Below, one piece after another: positions 8,851 to 64,000 of a stretch of DNA of 64,000 nucleotides. The notes under the pieces were generated by a model, which saw only the letters and a list, made by a program, of their open reading frames with translations, did no database searches and had not been told where the DNA came from. Origin of the DNA: an uncultured Bacteroidales bacterium (lineage in GTDB: Bacteria > Bacteroidota > Bacteroidia > Bacteroidales > JAIORY01); assembly GCA_964404485.1 (NCBI GenBank), contig CAYOKJ010000002.1, forward strand, positions 70-64,069, written 5' to 3'. The translations under genes were made by a program, and so were the position numbers. The stretch's first letter is position 1. Each line of letters begins with the position of its first letter.

Positions 8851-9024
8851 TATCAACTTGAAAATATCTTTAATTTTTGTATATAGTTACTACTTAATAC
8901 CATTTTCACTTTTTTGTTCTAAAACTTCTTTCCTTTTCGGGATATTATATACTTTTGGTAGAATTTAAAATCACATTTTAACAATGTCAAACACTATTTC
9001 TGTCATAAAAAAGATTCAATATTT

Positions 9025-10761
9025 ATGCCTGATTATCCGATTATAGAAATAAAGAATTTATCGGTCAGTTTTAAAACTGATAATAGCATATTAACGGCTG
9101 TTGATAATATTAGTTTTTCTCTTGAAAAAGGAAAAACACTGGGAATTGTCGGGGAGTCGGGTTCGGGAAAATCGGTTACTTCTTTATCAATTATGCAACT
9201 TGTTGATTGTCCTCCGGGAAAAATAGCAAGTGGAAATATTTTGTTTTCCGATGAAGATGTGAAGCAAACCGATCTTTTAAAACTTCCCGAAAAGGAAATA
9301 AAAAAATACCGCGGAAACAAGATAGGGATGATTTTTCAGGAACCAATGACTTCGCTTAATCCTGTTTATAAATGTGGGAAGCAAATTTCTGAATCTATTC
9401 TGCAACATCAAAAAATTTCTCATAAAAAAGCAAAGCAGAAAAGCATTGATTTACTTACAGAATTGCAACTTCCACGTCCTGAAGACATCTACAATTCTTA
9501 TCCTCATCAACTTTCGGGCGGACAAAAGCAAAGAGTGATGATTGCCATGGCTATTTGTTGTAATCCCTCAGTTTTAATTGCCGACGAGCCAACAACAGCT
9601 CTTGATGTAACTGTTCAAAAATCTATTCTTCAGCTTATCAAAGCTCTTCAAAAAAAACATGGAATGAGTGTGATTTTTATCACTCACGATCTTGGAGTTA
9701 TTGCAGAAATCGCCGATAAATTGTTAATAATGTATGATGGAAAAATTGTTGAACGGGGAGATTTAAAAGAAATTTTTCAACATCCAAAACATCCCTATAC
9801 TAAAGGTTTGCTGGCTTGTCGTCCACCAATGGATGTTCGCTTAAAAAAACTACCCGTAATAAAAGATTTTCTTAATGAAAAAAACAAAATATCTGTTGAA
9901 GCTTTCACAAAAAAACTTATCATTTCTGATGAACAACGCAAAGCAGAACAACAATCTCTTTTTGAAAAAACACCTTTATTAAGACTCAGAAATGTTAAAA
10001 CTTATTTTCCCATAAAGTCAGGGTTATTGAGGAAAACAAAAAGTATTGTAAAGGCAGTTGATGATGTAAGTTTTGATGTTTATCCTTCCGAGACTTTAGG
10101 CTTGGTTGGAGAATCGGGTTGCGGAAAAACTACTCTTGGGCGTACAATTTTAAATCTGATAAATGCTTCGGAAGGTGAAATAATTTATAAAAACAGAAAT
10201 ATTTCACAACTTTCAAAAATAGAATTAAGAAAATTAAGAAAAGATATTCAGATAATTTTTCAGGATCCATATTCTTCGCTAAACCCACGAATGACTGCCG
10301 GTTCAGCTATCATGGAACCACTTAAAGCACATAACATTTATAAAAATTATAAAGAAAGAAAAGAAAAGGTTTTTGATTTGCTTAAAAAAGTTGGCCTCGA
10401 AAAAGCACATTATTATCGTTATCCACATGAATTTTCAGGTGGTCAGCGACAAAGGATTTGCATAGCCCGTGCTTTATCACTCAAGCCTGAATTTATAATT
10501 TGTGACGAATCGGTTTCTGCTTTAGATGTTTCTATTCAAGCTCAAGTATTAAATCTGCTTAACGACCTAAAAAAGGAATTTGGTTTTACTTACATTTTTA
10601 TTTCTCACGACCTTTCTGTTGTCAAGTTTATGTCTGACAGAATGATGGTTATGAAAGACGGTAAAATACAAGAAATTGGTGATGCTGACGAAATTTATTA
10701 TCATCCGAAAACTGAATATACTAAGCAGTTGATTGATGCAATACCTAAAGGAGAATTTTAG
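9025..10761 (+). CDS. ABC transporter ATP-binding protein with two fused cassettes (oligopeptide/dipeptide DppD-DppF / YejF type)
   Basis: Walker A GESGSGKS and GESGCGKT; signatures LSGGQKQRV and FSGGQRQRI. Confidence 0.85.
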   Translation: MPDYPIIEIKNLSVSFKTDNSILTAVDNISFSLEKGKTLGIVGESGSGKSVTSLSIMQLVDCPPGKIASGNILFSDEDVKQTDLLKLPEKEIKKYRGNKIGMIFQEPMTSLNPVYKCGKQISESILQHQKISHKKAKQKSIDLLTELQLPRPEDIYNSYPHQLSGGQKQRVMIAMAICCNPSVLIADEPTTALDVTVQKSILQLIKALQKKHGMSVIFITHDLGVIAEIADKLLIMYDGKIVERGDLKEIFQHPKHPYTKGLLACRPPMDVRLKKLPVIKDFLNEKNKISVEAFTKKLIISDEQRKAEQQSLFEKTPLLRLRNVKTYFPIKSGLLRKTKSIVKAVDDVSFDVYPSETLGLVGESGCGKTTLGRTILNLINASEGEIIYKNRNISQLSKIELRKLRKDIQIIFQDPYSSLNPRMTAGSAIMEPLKAHNIYKNYKERKEKVFDLLKKVGLEKAHYYRYPHEFSGGQRQRICIARALSLKPEFIICDESVSALDVSIQAQVLNLLNDLKKEFGFTYIFISHDLSVVKFMSDRMMVMKDGKIQEIGDADEIYYHPKTEYTKQLIDAIPKGEF

Positions 10762-33271: not shown

Positions 33272-33490
33272 ATGGACTCTATGAATAGGATTAAAATAGT
33301 TTTAAAAGAACAAGGACGAACCCAGACTTGGTTAGCTGAAAAAATTGGAAAAAGTTTTGTTGTTGTGACCAACTATTGTAACAATAACTCCCAGCCAAGT
33401 ATTCAGGTTTTGACTAATATATCTAAAATTTTAGATGTTGATGTCCGAGAATTACTCGTTTCCACAAAAAACAATTTAAAAAATGGATAA
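33272..33490 (+). CDS. XRE/Cro-type helix-turn-helix transcriptional regulator (72 aa)
   Basis: RIKIVLKEQGRTQTWLAEKIGKSFVVVTNYCNNNSQPSIQVLTNISKILDVDVRELL is a canonical HTH_3 layout. Its stop overlaps the next start by 8 nt (ATGGATAA). Confidence 0.85.
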   Translation: MDSMNRIKIVLKEQGRTQTWLAEKIGKSFVVVTNYCNNNSQPSIQVLTNISKILDVDVRELLVSTKNNLKNG

Positions 33491-36125
33491 ACATCTAAAC
33501 ATATTCAAAAATGGAAGTTTTTGGCTAAGAGCCGATTTCCATTTACACACAAAAGCGGATAAAGAGTTTATTTATATTGGTGAAGAAAATTCCTTTATTT
33601 CATCTTATGTTGACAAGCTTGATGAGGAAAAAATCAAAGTTGCATTCATAACAAATCACAATAAATTTGATATAAATGAATATACAGCTTTATCAAAAAA
33701 GGCACTTAAGAAGGAAATATATATAATACCGGGAGTTGAACTTTCTGTAAATGACGGAGCAAATGGTATTCACTGTTTGGTAATTTTTAACCCAACAGAA
33801 TGGTTAGAAAATAATACGGATTTTATTAACCAATTTTTAACTCAAACATTTGCAGGAAAAGCAAATTACGAAAATGAAAATGGAAGGTCAAATGATAATT
33901 TAATTGAAACAATAAAAAAATTAGATGCATTTGAAAAAGACTATTTTATAATTATGGCTCACATTGAACAAACAAGTGGTTTTTTCAATGAATTTAACGG
34001 AGGAAGAATAGAAGAATTAGGGAAACAACCATTATTCCGAAAATCAGTATTAGGCTTTCAAAAAGTGCGGACACGTGATTATATAAAAAATCTCAAATTA
34101 TGGTTAGGGAATGAATTGCCAGCATTTGTTGAAGGTTCAGACCCTAAAAAGATTGATGAAATTGGGAAAGGCGAACCAACGTTTTTAAAACTTGGAGCAT
34201 ATAATTTCGAAGCAATAAAATATGCTTTGTTGGATAAGAATTTTCGTCAATCAAAATTATTAAAAAACCCAACTAATGGATATATAAAATCTATTAGTTT
34301 CAAAGGTGGTAAATTGGATGAAAATACTGTGTATTTGAATCATTCAATGAATAATTTGATAGGAATAAGAGGTAGTGGAAAATCTTCAATTTTAGAAGCC
34401 ATTCGGTACGCCTTAGATATAAGTTTAACAAAAGACCAGAATGTTGATTTTGAATATAAAAATAATTTGGTAAATGCACTTTTAAGTAGTGGTGGAAAGA
34501 TTACTTGTGTTTTGGTTGATGACCAGGGCAATGAATATAAAACAGAAAAAATATTAGGAGACAGAACAAACATATACAAAGATAATGAACTTCAATTAGG
34601 CTTAAAACCTAATGCCATTGTTAAAAAACCAATATACTTTGGGCAAAAAGACCTTTCACAAATTGGAGATTCATTATCAACAGAATACTTAATAAGCAAA
34701 CTCATAGGAGACCGATTAATAAATAAAAAACGAGAAATTGAAAACAAGAATCAAATCATCCTAAACTTATTGAATGAAATTAAAAGGGTTGATGCCAACT
34801 TAGATACTAAATCTGCATATGAAGAAAGATTGGCAGAGTTAAAATTAAAAATTCAAGTTTTTAAAGACAATGAAATTGACAAAAAACTAGAAAAACAAAT
34901 TGCCTTTGATAAAGACATAAACTTTATTAAACGAGTTGACAAATTCGAGGTTAAAATCATTGATGCTTTAGATGAATTTATTCAAGAATATGATGATGGA
35001 TTTGACAACTTTAAAACGTACGTATCTAAAGAAAATATAACGGATATAGAAAAAGTTTCTCAATCGTTAATCTCTTTTGAAAAAATATTTGATGATTTAA
35101 GAAACATCATAATTTCACTTATTACTAAAAATAAAGAACTCACAGAAACCCAAAAAGGTTTTACAAACAAATACAATGAATTAAAAGAAGAGTTTTCAAA
35201 CATTAAAAGAGACATAAAACTTCCAAATATTCAAGCAGATGACTATGTAAAATACACTAAAGAACTCGATTTAACGAAAGCACAACTTTCTGAACTAGAG
35301 AAGCTTTCCAAAAAGAAAAATGAATTACAGACTCAGCTTGAACAATCATTAGTTTCTCTTCAAGGATTATGGCATAACGAATTTGAAATCATTCAGGATG
35401 AAATTAGAAAGGTTAATTATGGTCAACCTCTTGTTGTTATAAATGGACAAGAGATTCCCGTAATCAAGATAAAAGTTGATTTCAAAAAAAATACAGATAA
35501 TTTTAAATCATATTTAAAAGAAAATCTCAGGGGGAGCAATCTTAGGGATAATAATATTCAAACTATAATTGATAACTATTCTGATTTAATTAGCGTCTTC
35601 AATGATTTCTCAATTGAAAATAGCAATATTCAAAATAGTTTATCAGAAACACAACTTCATACCTTTAAGGAGTATTTCAAATCTAATATTGGAGCCTTTT
35701 TAACCTATCGAATTCCTGATAAGTTCGAAATCATATACAGAGGACGCCCTCTAAACGTACATTCACTAGGACAAAGAGCATCAGCTTTAATTATTTTCTT
35801 GCTCACTTTGAAAGATAGTGACTTAATTATTATTGACCAACCAGAAGATGATTTGGATAACCAAACTATTTACAATGATGTTATCAAAGTCTTAAAAGAG
35901 TTAAAGAATACGTCACAGTTTATCTTTGCCACACACAACCCAAACATTCCTGTTTTGGGAGACTGTGAGCAAATCATCTCTTGTAAATATCACTCCAATT
36001 CAATTCAAACTGATTTAGGAAGTATTGATGATGAAACAATACGAAAAAAGATTGTGAATATTATGGAAGGTGGAGAAGAAGCATTTAATAATAGAAAAAT
36101 AATTTACGAATTATGGAAGCATTAG
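33483..36125 (+). CDS. PHP-family phosphoesterase fused to an SMC/Rad50/SbcC-like ABC ATPase with a long coiled-coil insert (Ppl-like candidate defence protein)
   Basis: PHP ligand candidates H20-x-H22 (ADFHLHT), H59 (ITNHN), E86 (GVELS), H97 and H160. Walker A GIRGSGK300SS. About 350 aa of heptad-rich K/E/L sequence. Signature-like S761-LGQR, Walker B LIIID785QPE788DDLD, and H-loop FATHN. Confidence 0.7.
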   Translation: MDKHLNIFKNGSFWLRADFHLHTKADKEFIYIGEENSFISSYVDKLDEEKIKVAFITNHNKFDINEYTALSKKALKKEIYIIPGVELSVNDGANGIHCLVIFNPTEWLENNTDFINQFLTQTFAGKANYENENGRSNDNLIETIKKLDAFEKDYFIIMAHIEQTSGFFNEFNGGRIEELGKQPLFRKSVLGFQKVRTRDYIKNLKLWLGNELPAFVEGSDPKKIDEIGKGEPTFLKLGAYNFEAIKYALLDKNFRQSKLLKNPTNGYIKSISFKGGKLDENTVYLNHSMNNLIGIRGSGKSSILEAIRYALDISLTKDQNVDFEYKNNLVNALLSSGGKITCVLVDDQGNEYKTEKILGDRTNIYKDNELQLGLKPNAIVKKPIYFGQKDLSQIGDSLSTEYLISKLIGDRLINKKREIENKNQIILNLLNEIKRVDANLDTKSAYEERLAELKLKIQVFKDNEIDKKLEKQIAFDKDINFIKRVDKFEVKIIDALDEFIQEYDDGFDNFKTYVSKENITDIEKVSQSLISFEKIFDDLRNIIISLITKNKELTETQKGFTNKYNELKEEFSNIKRDIKLPNIQADDYVKYTKELDLTKAQLSELEKLSKKKNELQTQLEQSLVSLQGLWHNEFEIIQDEIRKVNYGQPLVVINGQEIPVIKIKVDFKKNTDNFKSYLKENLRGSNLRDNNIQTIIDNYSDLISVFNDFSIENSNIQNSLSETQLHTFKEYFKSNIGAFLTYRIPDKFEIIYRGRPLNVHSLGQRASALIIFLLTLKDSDLIIIDQPEDDLDNQTIYNDVIKVLKELKNTSQFIFATHNPNIPVLGDCEQIISCKYHSNSIQTDLGSIDDETIRKKIVNIMEGGEEAFNNRKIIYELWKH

Positions 36126-37270
36126 AATTATTAGACTTAATACATAAAGGAGAATCCAGTGAAGTTCAATTTAAGATACGGGTCAATGATGCGTATAAAA
36201 CAGGAACTGAAATGGTTGCATTTTCAAATACAAAAGGAGGATTATTAATAATCGGAATTGATGATAAAACTGGAGATATAAATGGATTATCTTACGAAGA
36301 ACTTCAGGAAACTAATCAATTATTAGCAAATGCAGCATCAGATAATGTTAAACCTCCCATTTACATTTATACCGAGACAGTTGAAATAAGTGACAAAAAA
36401 GTAGTCGTTGCTCGAATTTCAGAAGGAATTAGTAAACCTCACACGGATAACAAAGGTATTATTTGGGTTAAGAATGGTTCTGACAAAAGAAAAGTTGTTG
36501 CTAGAGAAGAAATGGCAAGGCTATTACAAAGTAGTGGTAATTTATTTGCTGATGAAACAATAGTTAATGGTACCACTATAAACGATATTAATGAAGATTT
36601 TTTTAAAAACTTTATAAAATCAAAAACCAAGAAGTCTATTGATGAATTAGGACTGTCCATTTCGGGAATGTTGTCGAATATGGGAATGCTCAAAGATGGA
36701 AATTTATCTCTTGGGGGGTTACTTCTATTTGGGAAAAACCCGCAACAATATAGACCTGCTTTCACAATACAATGTGTGTCAATTGCTGGGAATGATATTA
36801 GTTCAAATGATTACAGAGATAAAGAAGACCCATTTATAGGAAACCTTCAAGAGCTTTATGATAAAACCCTTTCTTTTATTACCCGAAACTTAAAGAAAAT
36901 ACAAAAAGAAGAAAGTTTTAATTCACCATCAGTTCTCGAATTACCAATTGAAACTATTGAGGAACTCCTTGTTAATGCTTTGGTTCATAGAGATTATTTC
37001 ATTCTTTCAAGCATTAAGGTTTTTATTTTCGACAATCGGGTAGAAATAATAAGCCCCGGAATATTACCTAATACATTGACAATTGAGAATATTAAAGTTG
37101 GCACCTCAATTCAGAGAAACCCAATGTTATATTCAAACTCAAGATATGTTCTTCCATTTTTTGGTGTTGGTAGCGGAATACCCAGAGCATATGAAAATGT
37201 ACCGGATTTAGAATTAATTAATGATATTGATAGAGAACTCTTTATTTCAATAATCAAACGGAATAGTTAA
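36113..37270 (+). CDS. AlbA_2 (Schlafen-like 'divergent AAA') plus HATPase_c_4 domain protein (COG2865-like), lacking a C-terminal wHTH
   Basis: N-terminus GESSEVQFKIRVND...EMVAFSNTKGGLLIIGIDDKTGDINGL fits AlbA_2. C-terminus ELLVNALVHRDYF...RVEIISPGILPN...SIQRNPML...GVGSGIPR fits HATPase_c_4. The start overlaps the upstream stop by 13 nt. Confidence 0.7.
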   Translation: MEALELLDLIHKGESSEVQFKIRVNDAYKTGTEMVAFSNTKGGLLIIGIDDKTGDINGLSYEELQETNQLLANAASDNVKPPIYIYTETVEISDKKVVVARISEGISKPHTDNKGIIWVKNGSDKRKVVAREEMARLLQSSGNLFADETIVNGTTINDINEDFFKNFIKSKTKKSIDELGLSISGMLSNMGMLKDGNLSLGGLLLFGKNPQQYRPAFTIQCVSIAGNDISSNDYRDKEDPFIGNLQELYDKTLSFITRNLKKIQKEESFNSPSVLELPIETIEELLVNALVHRDYFILSSIKVFIFDNRVEIISPGILPNTLTIENIKVGTSIQRNPMLYSNSRYVLPFFGVGSGIPRAYENVPDLELINDIDRELFISIIKRNS

Positions 37271-52993: not shown

Positions 52994-53139
52994 AAAATTT
53001 ACCTCCTTTTTTACTAACACTCCGAGTTTTATATCTGAACTCATTATAAATAACCGAAAATTAATTAGTTTTAAAAAAAGATATTAATTGAAAATATTAA
53101 CTTCGAGGCGTCAAAAATATAAAATAGTTTTTTATAATC

Positions 53140-54606
53140 ATGCGTAGTTGGGCAAATTTCAATATTAAAATAATTATTCGTTTAATTGGGTATCTTTTAA
53201 TATTCGAAGGCTTTTTTATGTTTCTTTGTTTACCTTTTTCATGGTATTACTGTGGAGCTGGGTGTAATTCATTATTGATATCAGGACTTATTACTGCTGG
53301 CACTGGTGCTATTCTTTTCTTTTTTACAAGAAAAAATATTAGAAAAAACATAGGAAAAAGAGAAGGATATATTATTGTTTCGATAACATGGATTATTATT
53401 TCACTTTTTGGAACATTGCCATTTATAATAAGTGGTGCAATTCCAAATTTTACTAATGCTTTTTTTGAAACTATTTCAGGATTTACAACTACAGGAGCTT
53501 CGGTTTTAAGTGATATTGAGTCCTTGCCAAAGGGAATACTTTTTTGGCGTAGTATTACTCACTGGATAGGTGGAATGGGAATAATTGTTTTGTCAGTTGC
53601 AGTTTTACCTGTCTTGGGAATTGGTGGTATGCAGCTTTTTATGGCTGAAATGCCCGGTCCTCAACCCGACAAACTTCATCCACGAATTACAGAAACAGCA
53701 AAACGACTTTGGGCTATTTATGTTCTTCTTACTTTTATAGAAACAGTTTTTCTAATTTTTGGCGGAATGAGCTTTTTCGATGCTCTTTGTCATTCATTCG
53801 GGACGATGGCAACTGGAGGTTTTTCTACACAAAACGATAGTATTGCCGGATATTCACCATACATTCAATATGTTATAATTGTTTTTATGATTTTAGCCGG
53901 AACTAATTTTACTTTGCATTATTATGCCCTTCACGGGAAGCTGAAAAAAGTATGGCAAAACGAGGAGTTCAGATATTATTTCTTTCTTATATTAATTATC
54001 GGGATTATAATTACATTTTTTCTTTTTGTTTTTAATTATGGAGATTTTGAGAAATCATTTCGCGATTCCTTATTTCAGGTAGTTTCTATTATTACAACTA
54101 CCGGATATATCACTTCCGATTACTTGATATGGCCGGGAGGAGTATTATGGGTTATAATCTTTTTGTTGATGTTTATTGGTGGTAGCGCCGGTTCAACAGG
54201 TGGTGGAATGAAAATTATCAGGCAACTATTACTTTTTAAAAACACAATTGCTGAATTCAAACGTGCAATACATCCAAATGCAGTAGTCACAGTAAAATAC
54301 AACAAAAAGTCTGTTCCTCAGCAAATCATTTTTCTAATTATGGCATTCTTTTTTACTTATATTATAATATTCGGTTTTGGTACTTTTGTTATGACATTAT
54401 TTGGTTTGGATTTTGAAACAGCTATAGGTGCAACAATTGCATCTCTGGGAAACATTGGTCCCGGAATTGGTAATGTTGGTCCAACAGGAAATTACGCATT
54501 TATTCCCACAGGTGGTAAATGGTTTCTTTCGTTTTTAATGCTTCTTGGACGACTTGAACTCTTTACAGTTCTTATTATTCTTTCACCTGCTTTTTGGAGA
54601 AAATAA
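53140..54606 (+). CDS. trkH: Trk-type potassium transporter membrane subunit TrkH
   Basis: Polytopic protein with repeated selectivity-filter-like GFTTTGAS, MATGGFST, TTTGY and GNIGPG motifs. Confidence 0.9.
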   Translation: MRSWANFNIKIIIRLIGYLLIFEGFFMFLCLPFSWYYCGAGCNSLLISGLITAGTGAILFFFTRKNIRKNIGKREGYIIVSITWIIISLFGTLPFIISGAIPNFTNAFFETISGFTTTGASVLSDIESLPKGILFWRSITHWIGGMGIIVLSVAVLPVLGIGGMQLFMAEMPGPQPDKLHPRITETAKRLWAIYVLLTFIETVFLIFGGMSFFDALCHSFGTMATGGFSTQNDSIAGYSPYIQYVIIVFMILAGTNFTLHYYALHGKLKKVWQNEEFRYYFFLILIIGIIITFFLFVFNYGDFEKSFRDSLFQVVSIITTTGYITSDYLIWPGGVLWVIIFLLMFIGGSAGSTGGGMKIIRQLLLFKNTIAEFKRAIHPNAVVTVKYNKKSVPQQIIFLIMAFFFTYIIIFGFGTFVMTLFGLDFETAIGATIASLGNIGPGIGNVGPTGNYAFIPTGGKWFLSFLMLLGRLELFTVLIILSPAFWRK

Positions 54607-54728
54607 GTTGCCACGGATTTATACTAATTCTTAACAATTTTGCAAAGCAATTGCATACAGCATTCGCCGAATAATCAATATTTTAGAAAAAAATAAACTA
54701 AAAAAGTTCCTTGAATAATTTAATTTAC

Positions 54729-54736
54729 TACTTTTG
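54729..54736 (+). promoter_or_regulatory. -7 promoter box (TAnnTTTG) at the left edge of the restriction-modification island
   Basis: TACTTTTG lies 23 nt upstream of the ATG at 54759. Confidence 0.4.
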
Positions 54737-54758
54737 GTAATATATAATCAAATACGAT

Positions 54759-54890
54759 ATGAAATTTAAAATGACTCATCTTAATAGTGGTGTTTTACAC
54801 GCCAAATCGGCATGTAAAGAACACCTTTTTCAAGATATAAAAGAGAAATATAAACCATTAACTATATTACAACGTTGTATGCAAGGCTGA
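54759..54890 (+). CDS. Possible 43-aa ORF of unknown function upstream of hsdR
   Basis: My translation is MKFKMTHLNSGVLHAKSACKEHLFQDIKEKYKPLTILQRCMQG*. A good -7 box lies just upstream, but I recognise no family. Confidence 0.25.
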   Translation: MKFKMTHLNSGVLHAKSACKEHLFQDIKEKYKPLTILQRCMQG

Positions 54891-55135
54891 GAAACCCAGT
54901 TACATAAAACAAACTGATTAGAAAATTGCAAAATCGAATAGACAAAATATTAGCACTGATTGAAACTTACTGCAAGAAAAAATTAGTTTTTGCCGACCCG
55001 CTTTTGCCCTTCGGGACAATTAGGGAAGCCTGCCCACAAATAGCACATTTGTTTTTTGCCAACGCTAAAATCCAAACGCAAAAAAACAAAAGAGCTATTT
55101 CTTTCCATCACACAATAAATATGTACTTTTAGAGC

Positions 55136-57532
55136 ATGGTAAAGAAACTTATAATCATAAACCAAGATAGTGAAGCGGATACATGCAGAAAAGAAGTAAC
55201 ACCAAAGCTTTATCATGCTAATTGGAGTGATGAACAAATATTAGAACAAAGAACTTTTACCGATGGAAAAATAGTTGTACTTGGAAGAAAAGCGAGACGA
55301 AAAAAGGGAAAAAGAGCTGATTATATTCTTAGATACAAAACAGATTATCCGATTGCTGTAATTGAAGCAAAAAAGAAATATACCAAAGCAGCCGATGGAC
55401 TACAACAAGCTAAAGATTATGCTGAAATTTTGGGATTAAACTTTGCTTATGCATCAAATGGTGTTGAAATTATTGAATATGATTTTACAACAGGATTAGA
55501 AAGTAAAATAATTAACTTCCCTACACCCGAAGAACTCTGGAAAAGAGAATCAATAAAAGAAAATATTGATGAATCAATACAAGAAACTTTATTAAAACCA
55601 TTTCATTCTTTTGCAAGTAAAAAGCCAAGATATTATCAAACAATTGCAATTAACAGAGCAGTTAAAAAGATTTTAGAAGGCAAAAAAAGATTGTTATTAA
55701 CAATGGCAACAGGGACAGGAAAAACAACTGTTTCATTTCAAATTATTTATAAATTATGGAATAATCGATGGAATCAAAGAAATGACCATCGCAGACCTAA
55801 AATATTATTTATTGCAGACCGAAGCATATTAGTTAATGACCCTCATTCAAAGGATTTTGCAATATTTGGCGATGCAAGATGTTTAGTCCCTGACGAAGGG
55901 ATTGTAACAAGTCGTGAGATATATTTTTCAACTTATCAATCACTTGCTGAATATGAAAGTAAAGAAGGAAATTTTAGGAAATTTCCAAGAGACTTTTTCG
56001 ATATGATTATAATTGATGAGTGTCATAGAGGAAGTGCATCTGATGAAAGCAATTGGAGGAAAATTTTAGACTATTTTACAGAATCAGTTCACTTGGGATT
56101 AACAGCAACGCCACTTAGAGAAGATAATAGAGACACCTACGAATATTTCGGAAATCCGATTTACACATACAGTTTAAAACAAGGAATTGATGACGGATTT
56201 CTTGCTCCTTACATTGTTCACCGAATTGTAACCGAAGCTGATGCAACCGGATGGCGACCAGAAAAAGGACAAGTTGATGCACGAGGAAATGAAATTGCAG
56301 ACGGAATTTACACAACAACTGATTTTGAAAGAACATTATCCTTACTTCCGCGAACAAAAGCGGTTGCCAAACACTTGGCAGATTACATGACTAAAAATGG
56401 CAGATACAGCAAAACAATTGTTTTTTGCGTTGATCAGGAACATGCCGACCATATGCGAAGGGAGTTAAACAACTTAAATTCAGATATTACAAAAGATTAT
56501 CCAAATTACATTGTTCGCATTGTTTCAGAGGAAGGAGACGTAGGAAAAGGTCATTTGAGTGATTTTATGGATATTGACGAGGAATTTCCTGTAATTGTTA
56601 CAACTTCAAAGCTTTTGAGTACTGGAGTATATATTCCAACTTGTGCAAATATAGTTTTATTCAGAAACATAAATTCAATGACTGAATTTAAACAGATTAT
56701 TGGTCGTGGCACAAGAGTAAGAGAAGATAAAGGAAAACTATTTTTTACAATTTTAGATTATACAGGTAGTGCATCAAGAAATTTTGTTGACCCTGATTTT
56801 GATGGTGAACCACCATTGATTACAAATGAAGAAATTGACGAACAAGGACAAACCATTGAAGGTACTTTTGAGGAAGAAATAAACGAAACCGAAGAAATTG
56901 ACAATTGGGATGAACCTACAGAAACAGATTTTGAGAATATTCCAGATAATGAAGAAAACGACAGACCTCGTAAATATTATGTAGAAGAAGGAATCCTGTC
57001 AATTGTTGCTGAAACAGTTCAGATTTTAGATAGTCAGGGGAAACTACAGACAATCCAATATAGAAAATACACTAAAGACAAAATCTCAAATCTTTACCCA
57101 TCAGCAAATGAGTTTAAAAAAGCGTGGTTAGATTTAAACATTAGAAGGAACATAATTTCACAACTTGAAGAACAAGGCATTTTAATTGAAGATTTGAAAA
57201 AAATCACAAAACTTGTTGATGTTGACGCCTTTGATTTATTGCGTTATGTGGCTTTCGATTTGAAACCTTTAACCAGAAAACAACGAGCTAATTTACTTTT
57301 AAAAAATAAAGCTGATTTATTTTCTGAATATTCCGAAGGTGCAAGAGAAATTATCGAAATCATTATCTCAAAATATGTTGATTTTGGCATAGACCAGTTG
57401 AAACCTGAAATTATTCAGGTAGAACCAATTTCAAGCAAGGGAAATATTTTGGAAATTGCCGACAGATTTGGAGGGATTGACAAATTCAAAACACTAATAA
57501 ACGAATTACAAAAACAATTATACGCAGCGTAA
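55136..57532 (+). CDS. hsdR: Type I restriction enzyme R subunit (EcoEI/EcoAI-like, with an EcoEI_R_C-type C-terminal domain)
   Basis: N-terminal PD-(D/E)xK motif (RADYIL...VIEAKK), SF2 motor motifs MATGTGKT and IIDECHRGSA, TATP, QIIGRGTR, and C-terminal LLRYVAFD... Confidence 0.9.
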   Translation: MVKKLIIINQDSEADTCRKEVTPKLYHANWSDEQILEQRTFTDGKIVVLGRKARRKKGKRADYILRYKTDYPIAVIEAKKKYTKAADGLQQAKDYAEILGLNFAYASNGVEIIEYDFTTGLESKIINFPTPEELWKRESIKENIDESIQETLLKPFHSFASKKPRYYQTIAINRAVKKILEGKKRLLLTMATGTGKTTVSFQIIYKLWNNRWNQRNDHRRPKILFIADRSILVNDPHSKDFAIFGDARCLVPDEGIVTSREIYFSTYQSLAEYESKEGNFRKFPRDFFDMIIIDECHRGSASDESNWRKILDYFTESVHLGLTATPLREDNRDTYEYFGNPIYTYSLKQGIDDGFLAPYIVHRIVTEADATGWRPEKGQVDARGNEIADGIYTTTDFERTLSLLPRTKAVAKHLADYMTKNGRYSKTIVFCVDQEHADHMRRELNNLNSDITKDYPNYIVRIVSEEGDVGKGHLSDFMDIDEEFPVIVTTSKLLSTGVYIPTCANIVLFRNINSMTEFKQIIGRGTRVREDKGKLFFTILDYTGSASRNFVDPDFDGEPPLITNEEIDEQGQTIEGTFEEEINETEEIDNWDEPTETDFENIPDNEENDRPRKYYVEEGILSIVAETVQILDSQGKLQTIQYRKYTKDKISNLYPSANEFKKAWLDLNIRRNIISQLEEQGILIEDLKKITKLVDVDAFDLLRYVAFDLKPLTRKQRANLLLKNKADLFSEYSEGAREIIEIIISKYVDFGIDQLKPEIIQVEPISSKGNILEIADRFGGIDKFKTLINELQKQLYAA

Positions 57533-57535
57533 TAA

Positions 57536-59071
57536 ATGGCAAAAAAAGAGACTAAAACAACAGCACAAAGATTATCGGGGATTGTAAAATCGTGCCGGCA
57601 AATAATGAGGAAAGACAAAGGTTTGAATGGTGATGCTGACCGTTTGCCAATTCTTACATGGATAATGTTTTTGAAGTTTTTAGATGACAACGAAAAAATT
57701 CATGAATCGGAAGCATTATTAAAAAGCAAAACTTTTAAACCAACATTAAAAAATCCTTATCGCTGGAGAGATTGGGCAAAAGACACAAACCTAACCGGAG
57801 ATGATTTATTGCCATTCATAAATAATGAAAAAGCCACCTTCCCTGATGGTACAGAGGGAACAGGTTTATTCTACTATTTAAGAAGTTTGCAAAGTGAAAG
57901 CGGAAAAGAAAGAGCCGATGTAATTTCAACCGTTTTCAAAGGAATTAACAATCGAATGATAAATGGTTATTTGCTTCGTGATGTTGTAAATAAAATAGAT
58001 GAAATACAATTTACATCAAACGAAGAGATTTATACACTATCGCATTTGTACGAAAGTATTTTAAAAGAAATGCGTGATGCTTCGGGTGATGCAGGAGAAT
58101 TTTATACACCAAGACCAGTAGTTCAATTCATGGTAAATATGATAAATCCTCAATTGGGCGAAACTGTACTTGACCCCGCATCAGGCACAGGTGGCTTTCT
58201 TGTGGCTGCGTTTGAGCATTTGAAAAAGCAAGCCAAAACTTTAGAACAATTCAAAGTTTTACAAAAACAATCGGTAATTGGTGGAGAAGCAAAGCCGTTA
58301 CCATATTTATTGGTTCAAATGAACCTGCTATTACACGGCTTAGAATATCCACAAATTGACCCTTTAAACTCATTGCGTTTTAAGTTGCAGGAGATTGGCG
58401 ATAGTGAGCGTGTAGATACAATTATTACAAATCCACCATTTGGGGGTGAAGAAGAAAAAGGAATCCTAAATAATTTCCCGAAAGGCAAACAAACCACCGA
58501 AACAGCATTTCTATTTCTTCAACTTATCATGCGAAAGTTAAAACGTAAAAAGGCAGAACAAAAAGGCGGAAGGGCTGCCGTTGTAGTTCCCAATGGAACT
58601 CTGTTTGCTGATGGCGTGGCAAACCGAATAAAAAAGCAATTAGTAGAAGATTTCAATTTACACACAATAGTCCGTTTGGGCGATGGGGTTTTTGCACCAT
58701 ATACCGATATTCCTTCAAATCTATTGTTTTTTGAACATGGAAAGCCAACAAAAGAAATTTGGTATTATGAAATTTCTGTTCCTGAAGATAAAAAGAAATA
58801 CAGTAAAACAAAGCCAATACAAAATGAAGAATTTACTGAGATAAGCCAATGGTGGAACGATAGAAAAGAAACAGAATGGGCTTGGAAAGTAAACATAAAT
58901 GATATTGTAAAAGAGAACGGAAATGGCTCTGTATCTGTAAACCTTGACATAAAAAACCCAAATCGTAAAAGTGAATTTGAATATCAGGAACCATCAAAAC
59001 TGATTTCTTCGATAGTTGAAAGGGAAAAGGAAATTTTAAAACTAATGGAAGAAATACAATCAGGAATATGA
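57536..59071 (+). CDS. hsdM: Type I restriction-modification N6-adenine DNA methyltransferase M subunit
   Basis: Motif I DPASGTGGFL, motif IV NPPFGG, and an HsdM_N-type N-terminus. It starts 4 nt after the hsdR stop. Confidence 0.9.
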   Translation: MAKKETKTTAQRLSGIVKSCRQIMRKDKGLNGDADRLPILTWIMFLKFLDDNEKIHESEALLKSKTFKPTLKNPYRWRDWAKDTNLTGDDLLPFINNEKATFPDGTEGTGLFYYLRSLQSESGKERADVISTVFKGINNRMINGYLLRDVVNKIDEIQFTSNEEIYTLSHLYESILKEMRDASGDAGEFYTPRPVVQFMVNMINPQLGETVLDPASGTGGFLVAAFEHLKKQAKTLEQFKVLQKQSVIGGEAKPLPYLLVQMNLLLHGLEYPQIDPLNSLRFKLQEIGDSERVDTIITNPPFGGEEEKGILNNFPKGKQTTETAFLFLQLIMRKLKRKKAEQKGGRAAVVVPNGTLFADGVANRIKKQLVEDFNLHTIVRLGDGVFAPYTDIPSNLLFFEHGKPTKEIWYYEISVPEDKKKYSKTKPIQNEEFTEISQWWNDRKETEWAWKVNINDIVKENGNGSVSVNLDIKNPNRKSEFEYQEPSKLISSIVEREKEILKLMEEIQSGI

Positions 59072-60066
59072 GTAAATCAAAAATAAACGAAATAGCTATT
59101 TACGAAACCGAAGATGGTCAGGTAAAAGTTGGTGTCCTGTTTGAGCAAGACAATCTTTGGCTTACCCAGAAACTAATGGCAGAACTTTTTGAATGTAGTG
59201 TTGATAATATTTCTTTACACTTAAAAAACATATTTAAAGACAATGAATTGGATAAGAAATCAGTTGTCGAGGATTACTCGGTAACTGCATCCGATGGCAA
59301 ATCATACAAAACAAAGCACTACTCTCTTGAAGCAATTATTGCAGTTGGATACCGTATAAACACTACAAGAGGCACACAGTTTAGAACATGGGCAACAGAC
59401 AAATTAAAAAGTTACATCTTTAAAGGTTTTGCCATAGACAAAGACCGGTTTATAAAAGGAAGCAGATTTGATGCACGGTTTTTTGATGACTTACTAGAAG
59501 AGATAAGAGAAATTCGGGCAAGCGAAAGAATGGTATATCAGAAAATAACTGATATTTACGTAACTTCGGTTGATTACTCTACCGACACATTAGAAACCGA
59601 CCGCTTTTTTGCAACGGTACAAAACAAACTTCATTTTGCCATAACAGGAAATACTGCTGCCGAAATAATATCTGAAAGAGCCAATAGCATTAAAGAGAAT
59701 ATGGGCTTGACCACTTGGCGAAAAGCACCAAAAGGCAAAATTTACAAAAGTGATGTTACCATTGCCAAAAACTATTTGCAGAAAGCAGAAATAAAAAAAC
59801 TGAACCACATTGTAGATATGTATCTTGATTATGCTGAGTTTCAGGCAAGCAAAGCCAAACCAATGTACATGAAAGATTGGGCAGTGAAATTAGATGCCTT
59901 TTTACAATTTAACGAAGAAGAAATACTTAATGATAAAGGAAAAATATCAAAAGTAGTTGCAGCAGAACTTGCTGTAAGAGAATACGAAGCGTTTAGAATA
60001 AAGCAAGACCAAAATTATATTTCCGACTTTGACAAGGCTGTAAAACAATTAAAAAAGAAGTCTTGA
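59068..60066 (+). CDS. RhuM-family protein embedded in the type I R-M operon
   Basis: IAIYETEDGQVKVGVLFEQDNLWLTQKLMAELFECSVDNISLHLKNIF...AVGYRINTTRGTQFRTWAT matches the conserved RhuM N-terminal region. ATGA overlap with hsdM. Confidence 0.7.
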   Translation: MSKSKINEIAIYETEDGQVKVGVLFEQDNLWLTQKLMAELFECSVDNISLHLKNIFKDNELDKKSVVEDYSVTASDGKSYKTKHYSLEAIIAVGYRINTTRGTQFRTWATDKLKSYIFKGFAIDKDRFIKGSRFDARFFDDLLEEIREIRASERMVYQKITDIYVTSVDYSTDTLETDRFFATVQNKLHFAITGNTAAEIISERANSIKENMGLTTWRKAPKGKIYKSDVTIAKNYLQKAEIKKLNHIVDMYLDYAEFQASKAKPMYMKDWAVKLDAFLQFNEEEILNDKGKISKVVAAELAVREYEAFRIKQDQNYISDFDKAVKQLKKKS

Positions 60067-61217
60067 TGAAGAAGGATTGGAATAAATATAAGATTGGTGA
60101 TATTTTATTTCGAGTTAAAGACTCCTTTAATCTTAGTGAGCTTGAAGAATATAAAAGAGTTACAGTAAGAGGAAAGGGTGTTGGTGTTTCCATGCGAGAT
60201 ACAGCAAAAGGTTTAAATATTGGTACAAAAAGACAATTCAGAGTAAGGTCAAATCAATTTTTGATTTCGAAGATTGATGCCATGAATGGTGCTTATGGAA
60301 TAATACCAGATGAATGTGACAATGCTATTATTACAGGAAATTTTTGGACTTATAATTTTGATGGAAATGTATTATTAAAAGAATACTTACATTATTTATC
60401 AATTGCTTGTTTGTTTACGGATTTCAGTAAAAGAGCAAGTTCAGGAACTACAAACAGAAAATATCTTGATGAAGGTAAATTTTACAATCTTGAAATTGAG
60501 TTACCCTCACTTCCCGAACAGAAACGAATTGTAAAAATAATCAAGTCGGTTGAGGCGAAAAGGCAAAACATTAATAAACTGAATAAGGAGCAGGAAAGAG
60601 AGATAAAAAACATATTGTACAGCACTTACATTGATATAATCAAAGATGCTGAATATAAACCAATGGTAGAGGTTGCACCAATAATCAGACGACCTGTTAA
60701 TATTAGTGCAGAAGAAAAATATCCTGAATTGGGAATTAGATGTTTTGGAAATGGAACTTTTCATAAACCTGCTTTAAGCGGAATAGAAGTTGGCACAAAA
60801 AAACTTTTTCAAATAAAAACAGGCGATTTGGTTTTTAGTAATGTGTTTGCATGGGAAGGAGGAATTGCCGTAGCAAAAGAGGAAGATAACGACCGTTACG
60901 GTTCACACCGTTTTATTTCATGCAATTGCAATTTAGAACAGGTAAAACCATTATTTCTAAGCTTTCATTTTCTTGCACCAAAAGGCTTAGAAGAAATTAA
61001 CAACTGTTCACCAGGTGGAGCAGGTAGAAACAAAACATTAGGGCTTAAAAAACTTGAAGCATTAAAAGTTCCTGTTCCAAAAATTGATAAACAAAGAAAA
61101 TTTGAAAACTTATTGAATCAATTCAATCAACTTAAAGAACAAAGAGAAGAAAGAGAAAAGGAATTGACAAAACTAATTCCTAGTTTGTTGGACAAAGCAT
61201 TTAAAGGAGAATTGTAA
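60066..61217 (+). CDS. hsdS: Type I restriction-modification specificity subunit
   Basis: Two target-recognition domains are separated by the conserved helical spacer LPSLPEQKRIVKII...; the C-terminus carries the matching VPVPKIDKQRKFENLL... The ATG overlaps the rhuM TGA by 1 nt. Confidence 0.85.
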   Translation: MKKDWNKYKIGDILFRVKDSFNLSELEEYKRVTVRGKGVGVSMRDTAKGLNIGTKRQFRVRSNQFLISKIDAMNGAYGIIPDECDNAIITGNFWTYNFDGNVLLKEYLHYLSIACLFTDFSKRASSGTTNRKYLDEGKFYNLEIELPSLPEQKRIVKIIKSVEAKRQNINKLNKEQEREIKNILYSTYIDIIKDAEYKPMVEVAPIIRRPVNISAEEKYPELGIRCFGNGTFHKPALSGIEVGTKKLFQIKTGDLVFSNVFAWEGGIAVAKEEDNDRYGSHRFISCNCNLEQVKPLFLSFHFLAPKGLEEINNCSPGGAGRNKTLGLKKLEALKVPVPKIDKQRKFENLLNQFNQLKEQREEREKELTKLIPSLLDKAFKGEL

Positions 61218-61218
61218 A

Positions 61219-63354
61219 ATGGAAGAAAAAGGATATATAACAGCATTAGGAATAGGTTATTCTGGAGCTCTACCAAAAATAAAAAAGAATGATGAAAAAA
61301 TACAACCTGTTTTTGAGGCTTTAACAAATTCACTTGAGGCTATTAAATCGTTGAAAAATGACAATGGAAAAATTACAATCAAGCTATTTTTAGACAAGAC
61401 ACTGCATTCTGATGAAAATAAGGATTATTCTTTCCAAAAAATAGTTGTTGAAGATAATGGTATTGGTTTTAATGAAGAAGAGTTTGCCAGACTGGTTGAC
61501 CTTTATGATGAAGGTAAAGGGTATTTTAATAAAGGTTCTGGACGAATACAGTTCTTGCATTTTTTCAACAAAACAGAAATTACAAGTGTTTATAAAAGTG
61601 AGAAATCAGCTACAGGGTTTAAACAGCGAAATTTCTCATTATCAAAATCTAAAGCTTTTTTACAAAACAATGCTATTATTCGTGTTGATGATATAAAAGA
61701 TATTTCTGCAACAGAACCTTTCACAATTCTTACTTTTAATACTCCATTGCATGATGAGGATACTTTGTATTATAAATCATTGACGGTTGATGATATTAAG
61801 AATCATATTAAAGATCATTACTTAGCATATTTTTGCGAAAATAGAGATACTTTACCAAAAATTGTTATCCAATCATATATTAACGACATTAGTAGTGGTG
61901 AAACAGAAATTGTTGCTAATGATATCCCAAGAGTAGATCAACAAAAAGAAATTGATGTTTACTATAGTAAAATAACTGGAAATAGAATTACAAAAACAGA
62001 TAACAAAGAAGTTTTAAACCTTAAAGCATTCAAGATACCAAAAGATAATTTAGATAAAAATGGATTAAAACTTATTAGTAAGGGTGAGATAGCGATAGAC
62101 TTTACAATAGACTCACTATTAGATACTGATCATATTGAAAATAATCGTTATTTGTTTTTATTATCAGGAGATTATATAAACAATAAGGATAGTGATACAA
62201 GAGGAGAATTACAGATTCCAAAAAAAGCTGATTTTAAGAAAAATGAACTTTCTCTATTTGACGAAGAAGAAATATTGATGGATGATATTGAAGAAAAAGC
62301 AAATGAAGAGATTGAGAAACTATATGAGGAAATTAAATGTAATGCAGAAAAGAAAAAGAAAAATATTGAAGAGCTAAGAAAAATGTTCTTATTAAACGAT
62401 GAAACTATAAAATCTATAAGAATTGGTATTAACGATAGTGATGATAAAATATTAGAGAAAGTATATCAGGCAGATGCAAAAATAATAGCTAAAGGAGATG
62501 CGGAAATAAAACAGCAAATTAAACTGCTTGAAGAATTAAATCCCGCCGAAAAAGACTATGAGGACATATTCAAAACTCAAGTTGATGAATTAGTAAAAGC
62601 TATTCCTTTGCAAAACAGAACAGCTTTAACTCACTACGTTGCAAGACGTAAACTTGTACTGGAATTATTTGATAAAATTTTAGAAAACCAATTAGAAATT
62701 CAAAAAACAAGTTCTCGTAATATAGATGAGAAATTATTACATAATTTAATATTCCAGCAAAGTTCTGATAATACTGAAGATAGTGATTTATGGTTAATTA
62801 ATGAAGATTTTATTTATTTTAAAGGAGTTTCTGAAAGCAAATTGAAAGATGTTAAAATTGATAATGAATTTATCTTTAAAAAAGAATTTGAAAAAGAAGA
62901 AACCGAGTATTTATTATCATTAGGCGAAAATAGAAAAATTAAAAAACCTGACATTTTACTTTTTCCTGATGAGTCTAAATGTATAATAATAGAGTTGAAA
63001 AACCCTGATGTACCTATCAGGACGCATTTAGGACAAATTGATTTTTATGCAGGTCTTATTCGAAATCTTACAAAAGACACTTTTAACCTTGATACATTTT
63101 ATGGTTATTTAATTGGAGAATCTATTGACCCAAGAGATGTAAGGTTAACAGACCAACGTTTTATTCAATCCTACCATTTAGATTATATGTTTCGATCCAG
63201 CACGCCTGTTGCAGGTGACATTTTTCCTAATACGAAAAAAAGCGATGGTTCAATTTATACAGAAGTCATTAAATACTCAACCTTATTAGAACGTTCTTTA
63301 ATGCGAAACAAAATATTTATAGATAAAATAACTAAACCTATAAAATTACATTGA
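61219..63354 (+). CDS. GHKL (Bergerat-fold) ATPase fused to a C-terminal PD-(D/E)xK nuclease-like domain, coupled to hsdS
   Basis: N-box FE33ALTN37SLEA, G1 box D79NGIGF, G2-like GSGRIQF, and a central K/E-rich coiled region. The C-terminal KKPD578ILLFPDESKCIIIE592LK594NP has a D...ExK arrangement. The start lies 1 nt after the hsdS stop. Confidence 0.55.
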   Translation: MEEKGYITALGIGYSGALPKIKKNDEKIQPVFEALTNSLEAIKSLKNDNGKITIKLFLDKTLHSDENKDYSFQKIVVEDNGIGFNEEEFARLVDLYDEGKGYFNKGSGRIQFLHFFNKTEITSVYKSEKSATGFKQRNFSLSKSKAFLQNNAIIRVDDIKDISATEPFTILTFNTPLHDEDTLYYKSLTVDDIKNHIKDHYLAYFCENRDTLPKIVIQSYINDISSGETEIVANDIPRVDQQKEIDVYYSKITGNRITKTDNKEVLNLKAFKIPKDNLDKNGLKLISKGEIAIDFTIDSLLDTDHIENNRYLFLLSGDYINNKDSDTRGELQIPKKADFKKNELSLFDEEEILMDDIEEKANEEIEKLYEEIKCNAEKKKKNIEELRKMFLLNDETIKSIRIGINDSDDKILEKVYQADAKIIAKGDAEIKQQIKLLEELNPAEKDYEDIFKTQVDELVKAIPLQNRTALTHYVARRKLVLELFDKILENQLEIQKTSSRNIDEKLLHNLIFQQSSDNTEDSDLWLINEDFIYFKGVSESKLKDVKIDNEFIFKKEFEKEETEYLLSLGENRKIKKPDILLFPDESKCIIIELKNPDVPIRTHLGQIDFYAGLIRNLTKDTFNLDTFYGYLIGESIDPRDVRLTDQRFIQSYHLDYMFRSSTPVAGDIFPNTKKSDGSIYTEVIKYSTLLERSLMRNKIFIDKITKPIKLH

Positions 63355-63361
63355 ATAAATC

Positions 63362-64000
63362 ATGCTTGGCAAAACCCACCAATTAGTAGCAAACCTTTCT
63401 TTGGCATGTCTTAGTCAAAAAGAGAGGCATATTATGTATCCAAGATGGGGAGGCATTGAATCTGGTGCAACTTTATCGGATGAATTTAGGATTATGTGGG
63501 AAATTGAGGAAGTAGGTTCAGACAAAAAACAACTTGTTCATCGGTGTTATGTGGATAGCAAGGATACTAAAAACCACGGATGTATCACCAGATCATTAAA
63601 CCATGCTGAGGGCTGTATTGGTTTTATAGAAACCTACTCAAAAGAAGATAGTTCTGAAGAGGAATTCTTAGAGAATCTGGGGATGCTTATGGGAATTACA
63701 AGTCACCATATTGCAGATTTATGTACACCGGTTCATGTTGGCCATAGAATAAATTTTAAGAATTTGGGGTACTCTTCACTTTCCAGGTTCCACAATAAAG
63801 TAGAAAGAGATATTTTTCGTTTTCAAAATAAATCTTCTATAAAGTTCTCAAAACCAAAACTTGTTGAATTATCGGATAAGTATTTTTGGACTATTGCAAA
63901 TGATACATATAACAACATCTTTCTAAAGCTTGAAGCTATTTATAAAACAAAGGCTGAACCATCTATGATTGATATTTCCTCTCAGGTAGTTAGTAATGCG
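63362..64000 (+). CDS. S1/P1-nuclease / zinc-phospholipase-C superfamily protein (3' end outside the window; not in the supplied track)
   Basis: My own translation from the ATG at 63362 is open for 213 codons to the window end. Candidate metal ligands are H6 (GKTHQLV), H60, H115-x3-D119-x5-H125 (SHHIADLCTPVH) and H144-x3-E148 (FHNKVE). This reproduces the ligand spacing I recall for P1 nuclease and B. cereus PLC. Confidence 0.55.
   Translation, partial: MLGKTHQLVANLSLACLSQKERHIMYPRWGGIESGATLSDEFRIMWEIEEVGSDKKQLVHRCYVDSKDTKNHGCITRSLNHAEGCIGFIETYSKEDSSEEEFLENLGMLMGITSHHIADLCTPVHVGHRINFKNLGYSSLSRFHNKVERDIFRFQNKSSIKFSKPKLVELSDKYFWTIANDTYNNIFLKLEAIYKTKAEPSMIDISSQVVSNA

Follow-up and report, generated by a model that had tools for sequence, protein, structure and literature searches.

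An intact restriction–modification operon with add-on genes

The last six genes of a 64,000-nucleotide (nt) stretch of contig CAYOKJ010000002.1, from an uncultured Bacteroidales bacterium (the whole stretch is hereafter called the window), form a tightly packed locus that begins with a type I restriction–modification (R-M) system. We think it probable, though well short of certain, that this intact type IB R-M operon is a scaffold carrying three separable add-on defence genes, namely a RhuM-family gene (gene 3) between hsdM and hsdS (gene 4), a gene for a GHKL ATPase-nuclease (gene 5) directly after hsdS, and a gene for a protein with a zinc phospholipase C (PLC)/P1-nuclease fold (gene 6) at the end. 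According to this proposal, the six genes would be transcribed together from the hsdR leader, so that the add-ons would be expressed with the R-M system, and the type I enzyme would work canonically and need none of the three. Gene 5 would work alone as a second-line DNA nuclease, as the Vibrio cholerae protein VcSduA does, with its GHKL/transducer region dimerising and ATP use gating its C-terminal PD-(D/E)xK domain, a mechanism suggested by its architecture and by VcSduA. Gene 6 would be an intracellular hydrolase that uses a tri-zinc site to cleave a phosphodiester, perhaps one found in membrane phospholipid, in single-stranded nucleic acid or in a nucleotide signal, and would act as an independent effector or accessory. 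The arrangement of the locus is already known; what may be new is the gene 6 family.

All six open reading frames (ORFs) lie on the forward strand: hsdR (55136..57532, 798 amino acids (aa)), hsdM (57536..59071, 511 aa), gene 3 (59068..60066, 332 aa), hsdS (60066..61217, 383 aa from an ATG, with a TTG at 60063), gene 5 (61219..63354, 711 aa) and gene 6 (from 63362 to the window end at 64000, 241 aa in full). The successive gaps are 3 nt, −4 nt, −1 nt (TGATG), 1 nt and 7 nt, and these gaps are exactly those given by an earlier, sequence-only reading of this DNA. The six are not chance ORFs, because they span 241–798 aa at 32% G+C and have strong family matches or belong to large conserved families. 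Their tight spacing makes co-transcription likely and, by the same token, would favour translational coupling. Promoter scans found sigma-70-like sites (44 versus 42.8) and the Bacteroidota −7 motif TAnnTTTG (108 versus 116) at chance level, and a terminator scan found only weak terminator-like stems; these scans are uninformative on co-transcription in either direction.

The type IB set of hsdR, hsdM and hsdS is, as judged from the encoded proteins, complete, intact and full length, and restriction activity is predicted. hsdR belongs to the EcoAI/FtnUII (type IB) equivalog (NCBIfam NF046051, 979 bits versus a cutoff of 550), matches PADLOC REase_I at 2.7e-221, and combines an N-terminal PD-(D/E)xK nuclease (HSDR_N), a superfamily 2 helicase motor (ResIII) and EcoEI_R_C in Pfam. 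hsdM encodes the N6-adenine DNA methyltransferase subunit (Pfam N6_Mtase at 1.1e-64 together with HsdM_N; PADLOC MTase_I at 2.7e-181), and hsdS matches Pfam Methylase_S in two stretches, corresponding to two target-recognition halves, and PADLOC Specificity_I at 1.5e-97. Gene 3 is a RhuM gene (PF13310, 338.7 bits versus 33.7, over profile positions 1–249 of 252) and also matches the PADLOC phage-defence candidate PDC-S05 at 1.4e-139. The type I system recognised in the sequence-only reading is therefore present as a complete set, and its domain calls for genes 1–5 (the hsd genes, RhuM and the GHKL-nuclease) all hold.

Gene 5 as a GHKL ATPase-nuclease

On the strength of its predicted structure and motifs, gene 5 has a paraMORC3 architecture, with a GHKL and MutL-like transducer region at residues ~1–330, a coiled coil at ~340–500 and a C-terminal PD-(D/E)xK nuclease at ~560–700. 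Its family numbers more than 750 homologues of about 700–740 aa. In 32 homologues of 51–68% identity, the Bergerat motifs (N37, D79xGxG83 and G106xG108) and the nuclease motif (D578 and E592xK594, then a RecB-type Q606xxxY610) were examined, and N37, D79xGxG83, G106xG108, D578 and E592xK594 are invariant. The AlphaFold2 (AF2) model has a predicted local distance difference test (pLDDT) score of 78 overall and of 87–94 over residues 110–320, and its top Foldseek matches are MutL N40 (1b63), PMS1 (3h4l), SMCHD1 (6mw7), Topo VI-B (1mx0) and Hsp90 (E down to 1e-10), all over the GHKL and transducer regions; the alignments to the first four run to 300–530 columns (E 1e-10 to 1e-7). Pfam HATPase_c_3 is sub-threshold in gene 5 itself (21.3 bits versus 25) and matches 16 of the 32 family members, HSDR_N matches 24 of the 32, and weak PADLOC matches to Cas4 occur in 12. 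The plasmids searched yielded nothing closer than remote full-length relatives of 22–28% identity in Proteobacteria.

Membership of gene 5 in the Shedu family was considered and drew no support from hidden Markov models of the signature domain DUF4263 or of SduA: DUF4263 (PF14082) was found by Pfam in none of the 32 family members at E ≤ 1, PADLOC models of SduA gave no match to the family at E ≤ 1, and a gene 5 profile search of sequences in the Protein Data Bank (PDB) matched no Shedu chain.

Gene 6 lies closer to phospholipase C than to S1/P1 nucleases

The sequence-only reading had called gene 6 an S1/P1-like zinc enzyme, which is right at the level of the superfamily; within the PLC/P1-nuclease fold, the protein is closer to phospholipase C. 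Its AF2 model (pLDDT 92.5) is an all-alpha fold that Foldseek matched to the phosphatidylcholine-preferring PLC (PC-PLC) of Bacillus cereus (1ah7) with a template modelling (TM) score of 0.65, and to the N-domain of Clostridium perfringens alpha-toxin and Listeria PLC (probability 1.00 and TM 0.63–0.66 across 1ah7, 2ffz, 2wxt and 8cqm), whereas the S1/P1 nuclease TBN1 (3sng) reached a TM of only 0.40. Profile matches point the same way, in that Zn_dep_PLPC is matched weakly by 26 of 30 gene 6 family members (best E 6.4e-5) and S1-P1 (PF02265) by two of the 30 (best E 0.007). Gene 6 itself has nothing above threshold in Pfam, NCBIfam or the defence database, and scores 15.0–15.2 bits against a PF00882 gathering threshold of 26.8.

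The three zinc ions of PC-PLC are held by W1, H14, D55, H69, H118, D122, H128, H142 and E146 (1AH7). Alignment by hhalign (E 0.0036; the 1AH7 sequence used is identical to the PDB chain) places H115, D119, H125, H144 and E148 of gene 6 on H118, D122, H128, H142 and E146, respectively. For the other His and Asp ligands, order and spacing alone suggest H6, which at least 90% of members share, together with D40 and H60, which are invariant. Putative counterparts can thus be named for eight of the nine ligands, the N-terminal Trp ligand being absent, and metal binding is predicted. Residues invariant across the family include D40, H60, H72, H115, H116, D119, H125, H144, E148 and D150; beyond the ligands, conservation takes in R22, P27-R28-W29, H72, D150, W221 and W235, all invariant, and H128 in at least 90% of members. 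Because its active-site residues are invariant, gene 6 appears to be an enzyme under selection, and because it has neither a signal peptide nor the N-terminal Trp ligand, it is presumably cytoplasmic. The family is rare, with 163 proteins at 90% clustering and 53 representative clusters, mostly fragments, among 1.84 billion proteins. No homologues were present in the viral contigs or on the plasmids searched, and the literature searched turned up no zinc-PLC-fold or P1-fold enzyme as an anti-phage component.

Sister operons exchange cassettes around a shared core

Two sister operons in metagenome loci (L135 and L139) read hsdR-hsdM-hsdS-[405 aa]-KwaA-KwaB-gene 6, and the identity of their KwaA-KwaB pair as Kiwa was confirmed. 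DNA identity to the window is about 80% over hsdR-hsdM and 84% over gene 6, and the gene 6 proteins share 87–89% identity. Both sisters are without RhuM (hsdM abuts hsdS), gene 5 and the insertion sequence (IS) that follows gene 6 in relatives of the window. hsdS is shared with the sisters only in its 3' half (blastn match at 9400–9998 of L001, a contig that carries the locus beyond the window end), which argues that two slots have been exchanged, one from hsdM to the conserved half of hsdS and the other from hsdS to gene 6. The sister operons thus amount to a natural experiment in which the only differences are what stands between hsdS and gene 6 (a paraMORC3 gene versus Kiwa preceded by the 405-aa gene) and whether RhuM is there. 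The 405-aa protein between hsdS and KwaA-KwaB (L139:5460–6677 and L135:5440–6660) is conserved and has no family match.

Genes 5 and 6 occur separately among defence genes

Gene 5 was surveyed in 80 loci from the genomes of different species (Bacteroidota, Campylobacterota, Spirochaetota, Acidobacteriota, Kiritimatiellia and others). In 23 of these loci, type I genes stand no more than 6 kb from it, and the figure is 14 when only the 46 loci flanked by 5 kb or more on both sides are counted; hsdS is immediately upstream in 14 of the 80, at gaps of −14 to +18 nt and often with overlapping stop and start codons; and the exact order hsdM-hsdS-gene 5-hsdR occurs in seven. About one in six of the loci surveyed thus has a nuclease-bearing paraMORC3 gene, a kind held in 2008 to lack conserved neighbours, directly behind a type I hsdS. 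This placement, together with the HSDR_N matches of the gene 5 nuclease, could mean that gene 5, possibly along with gene 6 and RhuM, is a physical accessory subunit of the type I enzyme, with the GHKL region perhaps looping or clamping the DNA that separates the recognition site from the cleavage site and providing a second nuclease. Looping or clamping of DNA has been proposed for paraMORCs by Iyer et al. (PMC2292703), and a common unit would also fit the retention of gene 6 as the last gene in three type IB operons that are related. We nevertheless consider such integration unlikely, because the other 57 gene 5 loci are without a type I gene within 6 kb and have varied neighbours, usually more than 100 nt away, many copies being that far from either neighbour; because HsdR here is complete and has its own nuclease; because nuclease-bearing paraMORC3 genes are mostly standalone according to Iyer et al. 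(PMC2292703) and VcSduA works alone in Escherichia coli (PMC12137116); and because gene 6 homologues stand beside Kiwa, Avs1b, SIR2 and HNH genes without nearby type I genes. Around those 57 loci, PADLOC matches are rich in type IIG, type II and type III R-M genes, GajA, AriA and PtuA.

The survey of gene 6 covered 37 independent metagenome loci, in which its neighbours include HNH nucleases, a SIR2 protein, KwaA/KwaB, hsdR-like genes, a NucS/PDDEXK protein, MkoA, AriA and a Cap2-like E1-E2 protein; one homologue of 84% identity adjoins an Avs1b gene. In whatever operon it follows, gene 6 is usually terminal. Since these neighbours are mostly recognised defence genes of many systems, the usual signature of defence genes, gene 6 is itself probably of the defence type. 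An alternative interpretation, which we regard as rather improbable, is that gene 6 has no part in defence and is carried at the end of mobile islands for the sake of island maintenance, whether as a regulator, as a toxin or addiction factor, or as a cytoplasmic zinc phosphoesterase of unrelated function. The very small family, the want of any model above threshold, the usual terminal position and a palindromic element of about 65 nt that flanks the whole island (described below) are all consistent with such a passenger, but the breadth of defence systems beside it and its invariant active-site residues, indicative of a selected enzyme, argue otherwise, as does the nature of its partners: no antitoxin-like gene recurs next to it, and the sole recurrent neighbour is one with a nuclease-like motif.

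That neighbour, which we call family d1, is an unannotated protein of about 400 aa whose gene is adjacent to, and on the same strand as, gene 6 homologues in 9 of the 37 loci (L094:2189–3352, L097:631–1830, L098:897–2240, L106:1404–2630, L107:10775–12007, L110:10766–11995 and L111:8786–9943, with partial copies at L109:1096–1842 and L114:1–1092). It bears a D...ExK-like motif (GADGLIVE...VIEVKS) and has no match in Pfam, PADLOC or PDB sequences. This family is a possible regular partner of the zinc enzyme. Derivation of d1 from gene 5 or from the 405-aa gene in L139, as a diverged relative of either, was rejected at an hhalign probability below 1% in each case.

That genes 5 and 6 together form a dedicated two-gene module, an ATPase-nuclease sensor with a zinc-hydrolase effector, appended to the R-M system is highly improbable: the two lie 7 nt apart, and every contig with identical proteins, across several salt-lake samples, has both, but those contigs are all of one lineage and hence not independent evidence, no gene 6 homologue occurs at any of the 80 gene 5 loci and no gene 5 at any of the 37 gene 6 loci, and gene 6 proteins of 87–89% identity stand behind Kiwa instead. 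The sequence-only reading had seen here a composite of R-M and a second-line defence module, and had taken scattering of genes 5 and 6, independently of each other and of R-M or defence genes, as evidence to the contrary. The two genes are indeed scattered independently of each other, and not of defence genes, so that the composite stands in so far as both extra genes are found among R-M or defence genes elsewhere, and falls as a dedicated linked extension.

A bolder proposal, which we put forward tentatively and would sooner doubt than accept, is that gene 6 represents a new and rare family of cytoplasmic tri-zinc PLC-fold phosphodiesterases in anti-phage immunity, a portable effector or accessory that can join defence operons of unrelated kinds (type I R-M, Kiwa, Avs, SIR2 or HNH) at their 3' end and that, when the system upstream is triggered, might break down membrane phospholipid, single-stranded nucleic acid or a nucleotide signal, and, separately, that gene 5 has a specific and previously unnoted partnership with HsdS/HsdM.

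We caution that several points weigh against the scaffold with separable add-ons that we favour. The PADLOC neighbour counts stand without a matched genomic background. The function of VcSduA would be carried over to gene 5 by architecture, homology not being detected (no DUF4263 and no SduA). The tight and recurrent placement of gene 5 after hsdS, with its HsdR-N-like nuclease, could reflect real cooperation with the type I enzyme, and gene 6, which stays last in three related operons whose middle cassette varies, could be part of the R-M unit. Gene 6 is without a known defence relative, and its substrate is a guess. Finally, expression of the locus as an operon is predicted from gene spacing.

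Boundaries and population structure of the island

The sequence-only reading had it that the window ends before the operon does. This is true of gene 6, which the window cuts 28 codons short of its stop (full length from L001:12144–12869), but no further genes of the cluster follow: in contigs L001–L006, which carry identical proteins, gene 6 is the last gene, and an IS3-family element begins 2–3 nt past its stop (L001:12872–14340, equivalent to about 64090–65558 in window coordinates). Contigs with an identical gene 5 or gene 6 protein were found in several salt-lake metagenomes. The element encodes orfA (113 aa) and an rve transposase (287 aa) between terminal inverted repeats TGTCTTGTCCTGAAAT / AAATTCAGGACGAGTCA, and is missing from both sister loci. 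The insertion has not truncated gene 6, since family size is uniform at about 245 aa. Beyond the IS the assemblies differ, continuing into AbiEii/DUF6088 and cysS, a Rce1-like gene or adh_short, as is expected at a repeated element. In one of them, a pair of DUF6088 and AbiEii (a nucleotidyltransferase toxin) follows the IS (L001:14788–16240), and this pair would lengthen the defence island if that assembly join is real.

Upstream, the genes trkA and trkH precede a forward-strand leader of 529 nt between the trkH stop and hsdR (54607..55135). A small ORF called within it on the same strand (54926–55132, 68 aa, TTG start) is of doubtful reality. The leader also holds the palindromic element of about 65 nt, at about 55030–55100, with 20-nt arms at 55038–55057 and 55081–55100 and the core AGCACATTTGCAA...TTGCAAAAGAGC; it came to light only through alignment to the sister loci. 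A second copy lies past gene 6 and the IS in L001 (14340–14405), and the sister island L135 is flanked by the element on both sides (250–320 and 8910–8975, the latter directly after gene 6). Being upstream of hsdR and downstream of gene 6, the element brackets the whole island, and it may mark where the island ends or be a site of recombination or regulation. Within L001, a repeat search revealed no long direct repeats on either side of the island.

In run X1, one contig without variants, beginning at 54621, covers the island at a depth of 26.3, whereas the trkH region (53000–54600) has a depth of 38–54 and many variant positions, and loose ends lie at 54617–54650. These differences in depth and variation argue that the island is probably present in only part of the population. 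In salt-lake runs X10, X12 and X16, contigs match the window up to 59094, just past the hsdM stop, and again from 61223, at the start of gene 5, and are unlike it in between, which hints at an alternative RhuM/hsdS segment in co-occurring strains.

Elsewhere in the window, a TrlF-family AAA-like ATPase of 880 aa (33483–36125; NF045780, 513 bits versus a cutoff of 350) resembles the anti-phage protein Ppl, and its ORF overlaps that of a 385-aa protein at 36113–37270. The pair is a possible second defence locus about 20 kb upstream of the R-M operon. The window also encodes an equivalog of the type IX secretion system protein PorZ, which marks the salt-lake host as a member of the Bacteroidota.

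Comparison with known systems

The core agrees with type IB R-M systems (EcoAI/FtnUII) in that hsdR, hsdM and hsdS are all full length and hsdR carries EcoEI_R_C, and departs from them in its order, hsdR-hsdM-(RhuM)-hsdS, and in the two genes after hsdS. RhuM genes have already been reported between type I core genes (PMC9881135), and gene 3 is a full-length, high-scoring member of the family with the same hsdM-hsdS placement as in other genomes; the family itself has no more than candidate status in defence. PADLOC-DB 2.0.0 contains neither gene 5 nor gene 6.

ParaMORC3 proteins were described as a GHKL and S5 module joined to a RecB-like nuclease of the restriction endonuclease (RE) fold, prevalent in Bacteroidetes and Proteobacteria and often standalone, and paraMORCs were tied in 2008 mainly to helicase-containing (type III-like, SWI2/SNF2) R-M loci (PMC2292703). 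Gene 5 is likened to them by this described architecture, having intact GHKL motifs, an S5/transducer region and a C-terminal RE-fold nuclease, and is unlike them in its recurrent position right after type I hsdS, documented here. GHKL plus PD-(D/E)xK proteins ‘previously annotated as paraMORC3’ have since been grouped with Shedu as type 1D, and R-M loci contain 602 Shedu genes out of 5,499 (10.1101/2023.08.10.552793); VcSduA, which has this domain composition, is anti-phage and depends for this on the residues of both active sites, ATPase and nuclease (PMC12137116). Like VcSduA and Shedu 1D, gene 5 unites in one polypeptide a GHKL region at the N terminus, a middle domain and a C-terminal PD-(D/E)xK domain, and most of its homologues are standalone; unlike them, its nuclease scores as HSDR_N or Cas4-like, with no DUF4263, so that the likeness is one of architecture.

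Gene 6 shares with the zinc PLCs (PC-PLC 1AH7, the alpha-toxin N-domain and Listeria PlcB) an all-helical fold, five aligned ligands and three further conserved residues in register, and differs from them in having no signal peptide, no N-terminal Trp ligand, extra invariant residues and a defence-island setting. Its match to the S1/P1 nucleases is much weaker, in both fold and profile, than that to the PLCs.

Defence genes are nested in type I R-M, BREX, DISARM and Hma loci, and often so in type I R-M systems (10.1101/2024.01.29.577857), PrrC being the classic type I case. The present locus follows that pattern, with extra genes inside or flush with a type I operon, cassettes that vary between sisters, and each gene also found outside R-M; it deviates in that genes 5 and 6 come after the last core gene and not between core genes, although gene 5 elsewhere sits between hsdS and hsdR. 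We regard it as one more case of type I R-M operons as landing pads for defence genes, one that also flags an apparently undescribed zinc PLC-fold family confined to defence islands.

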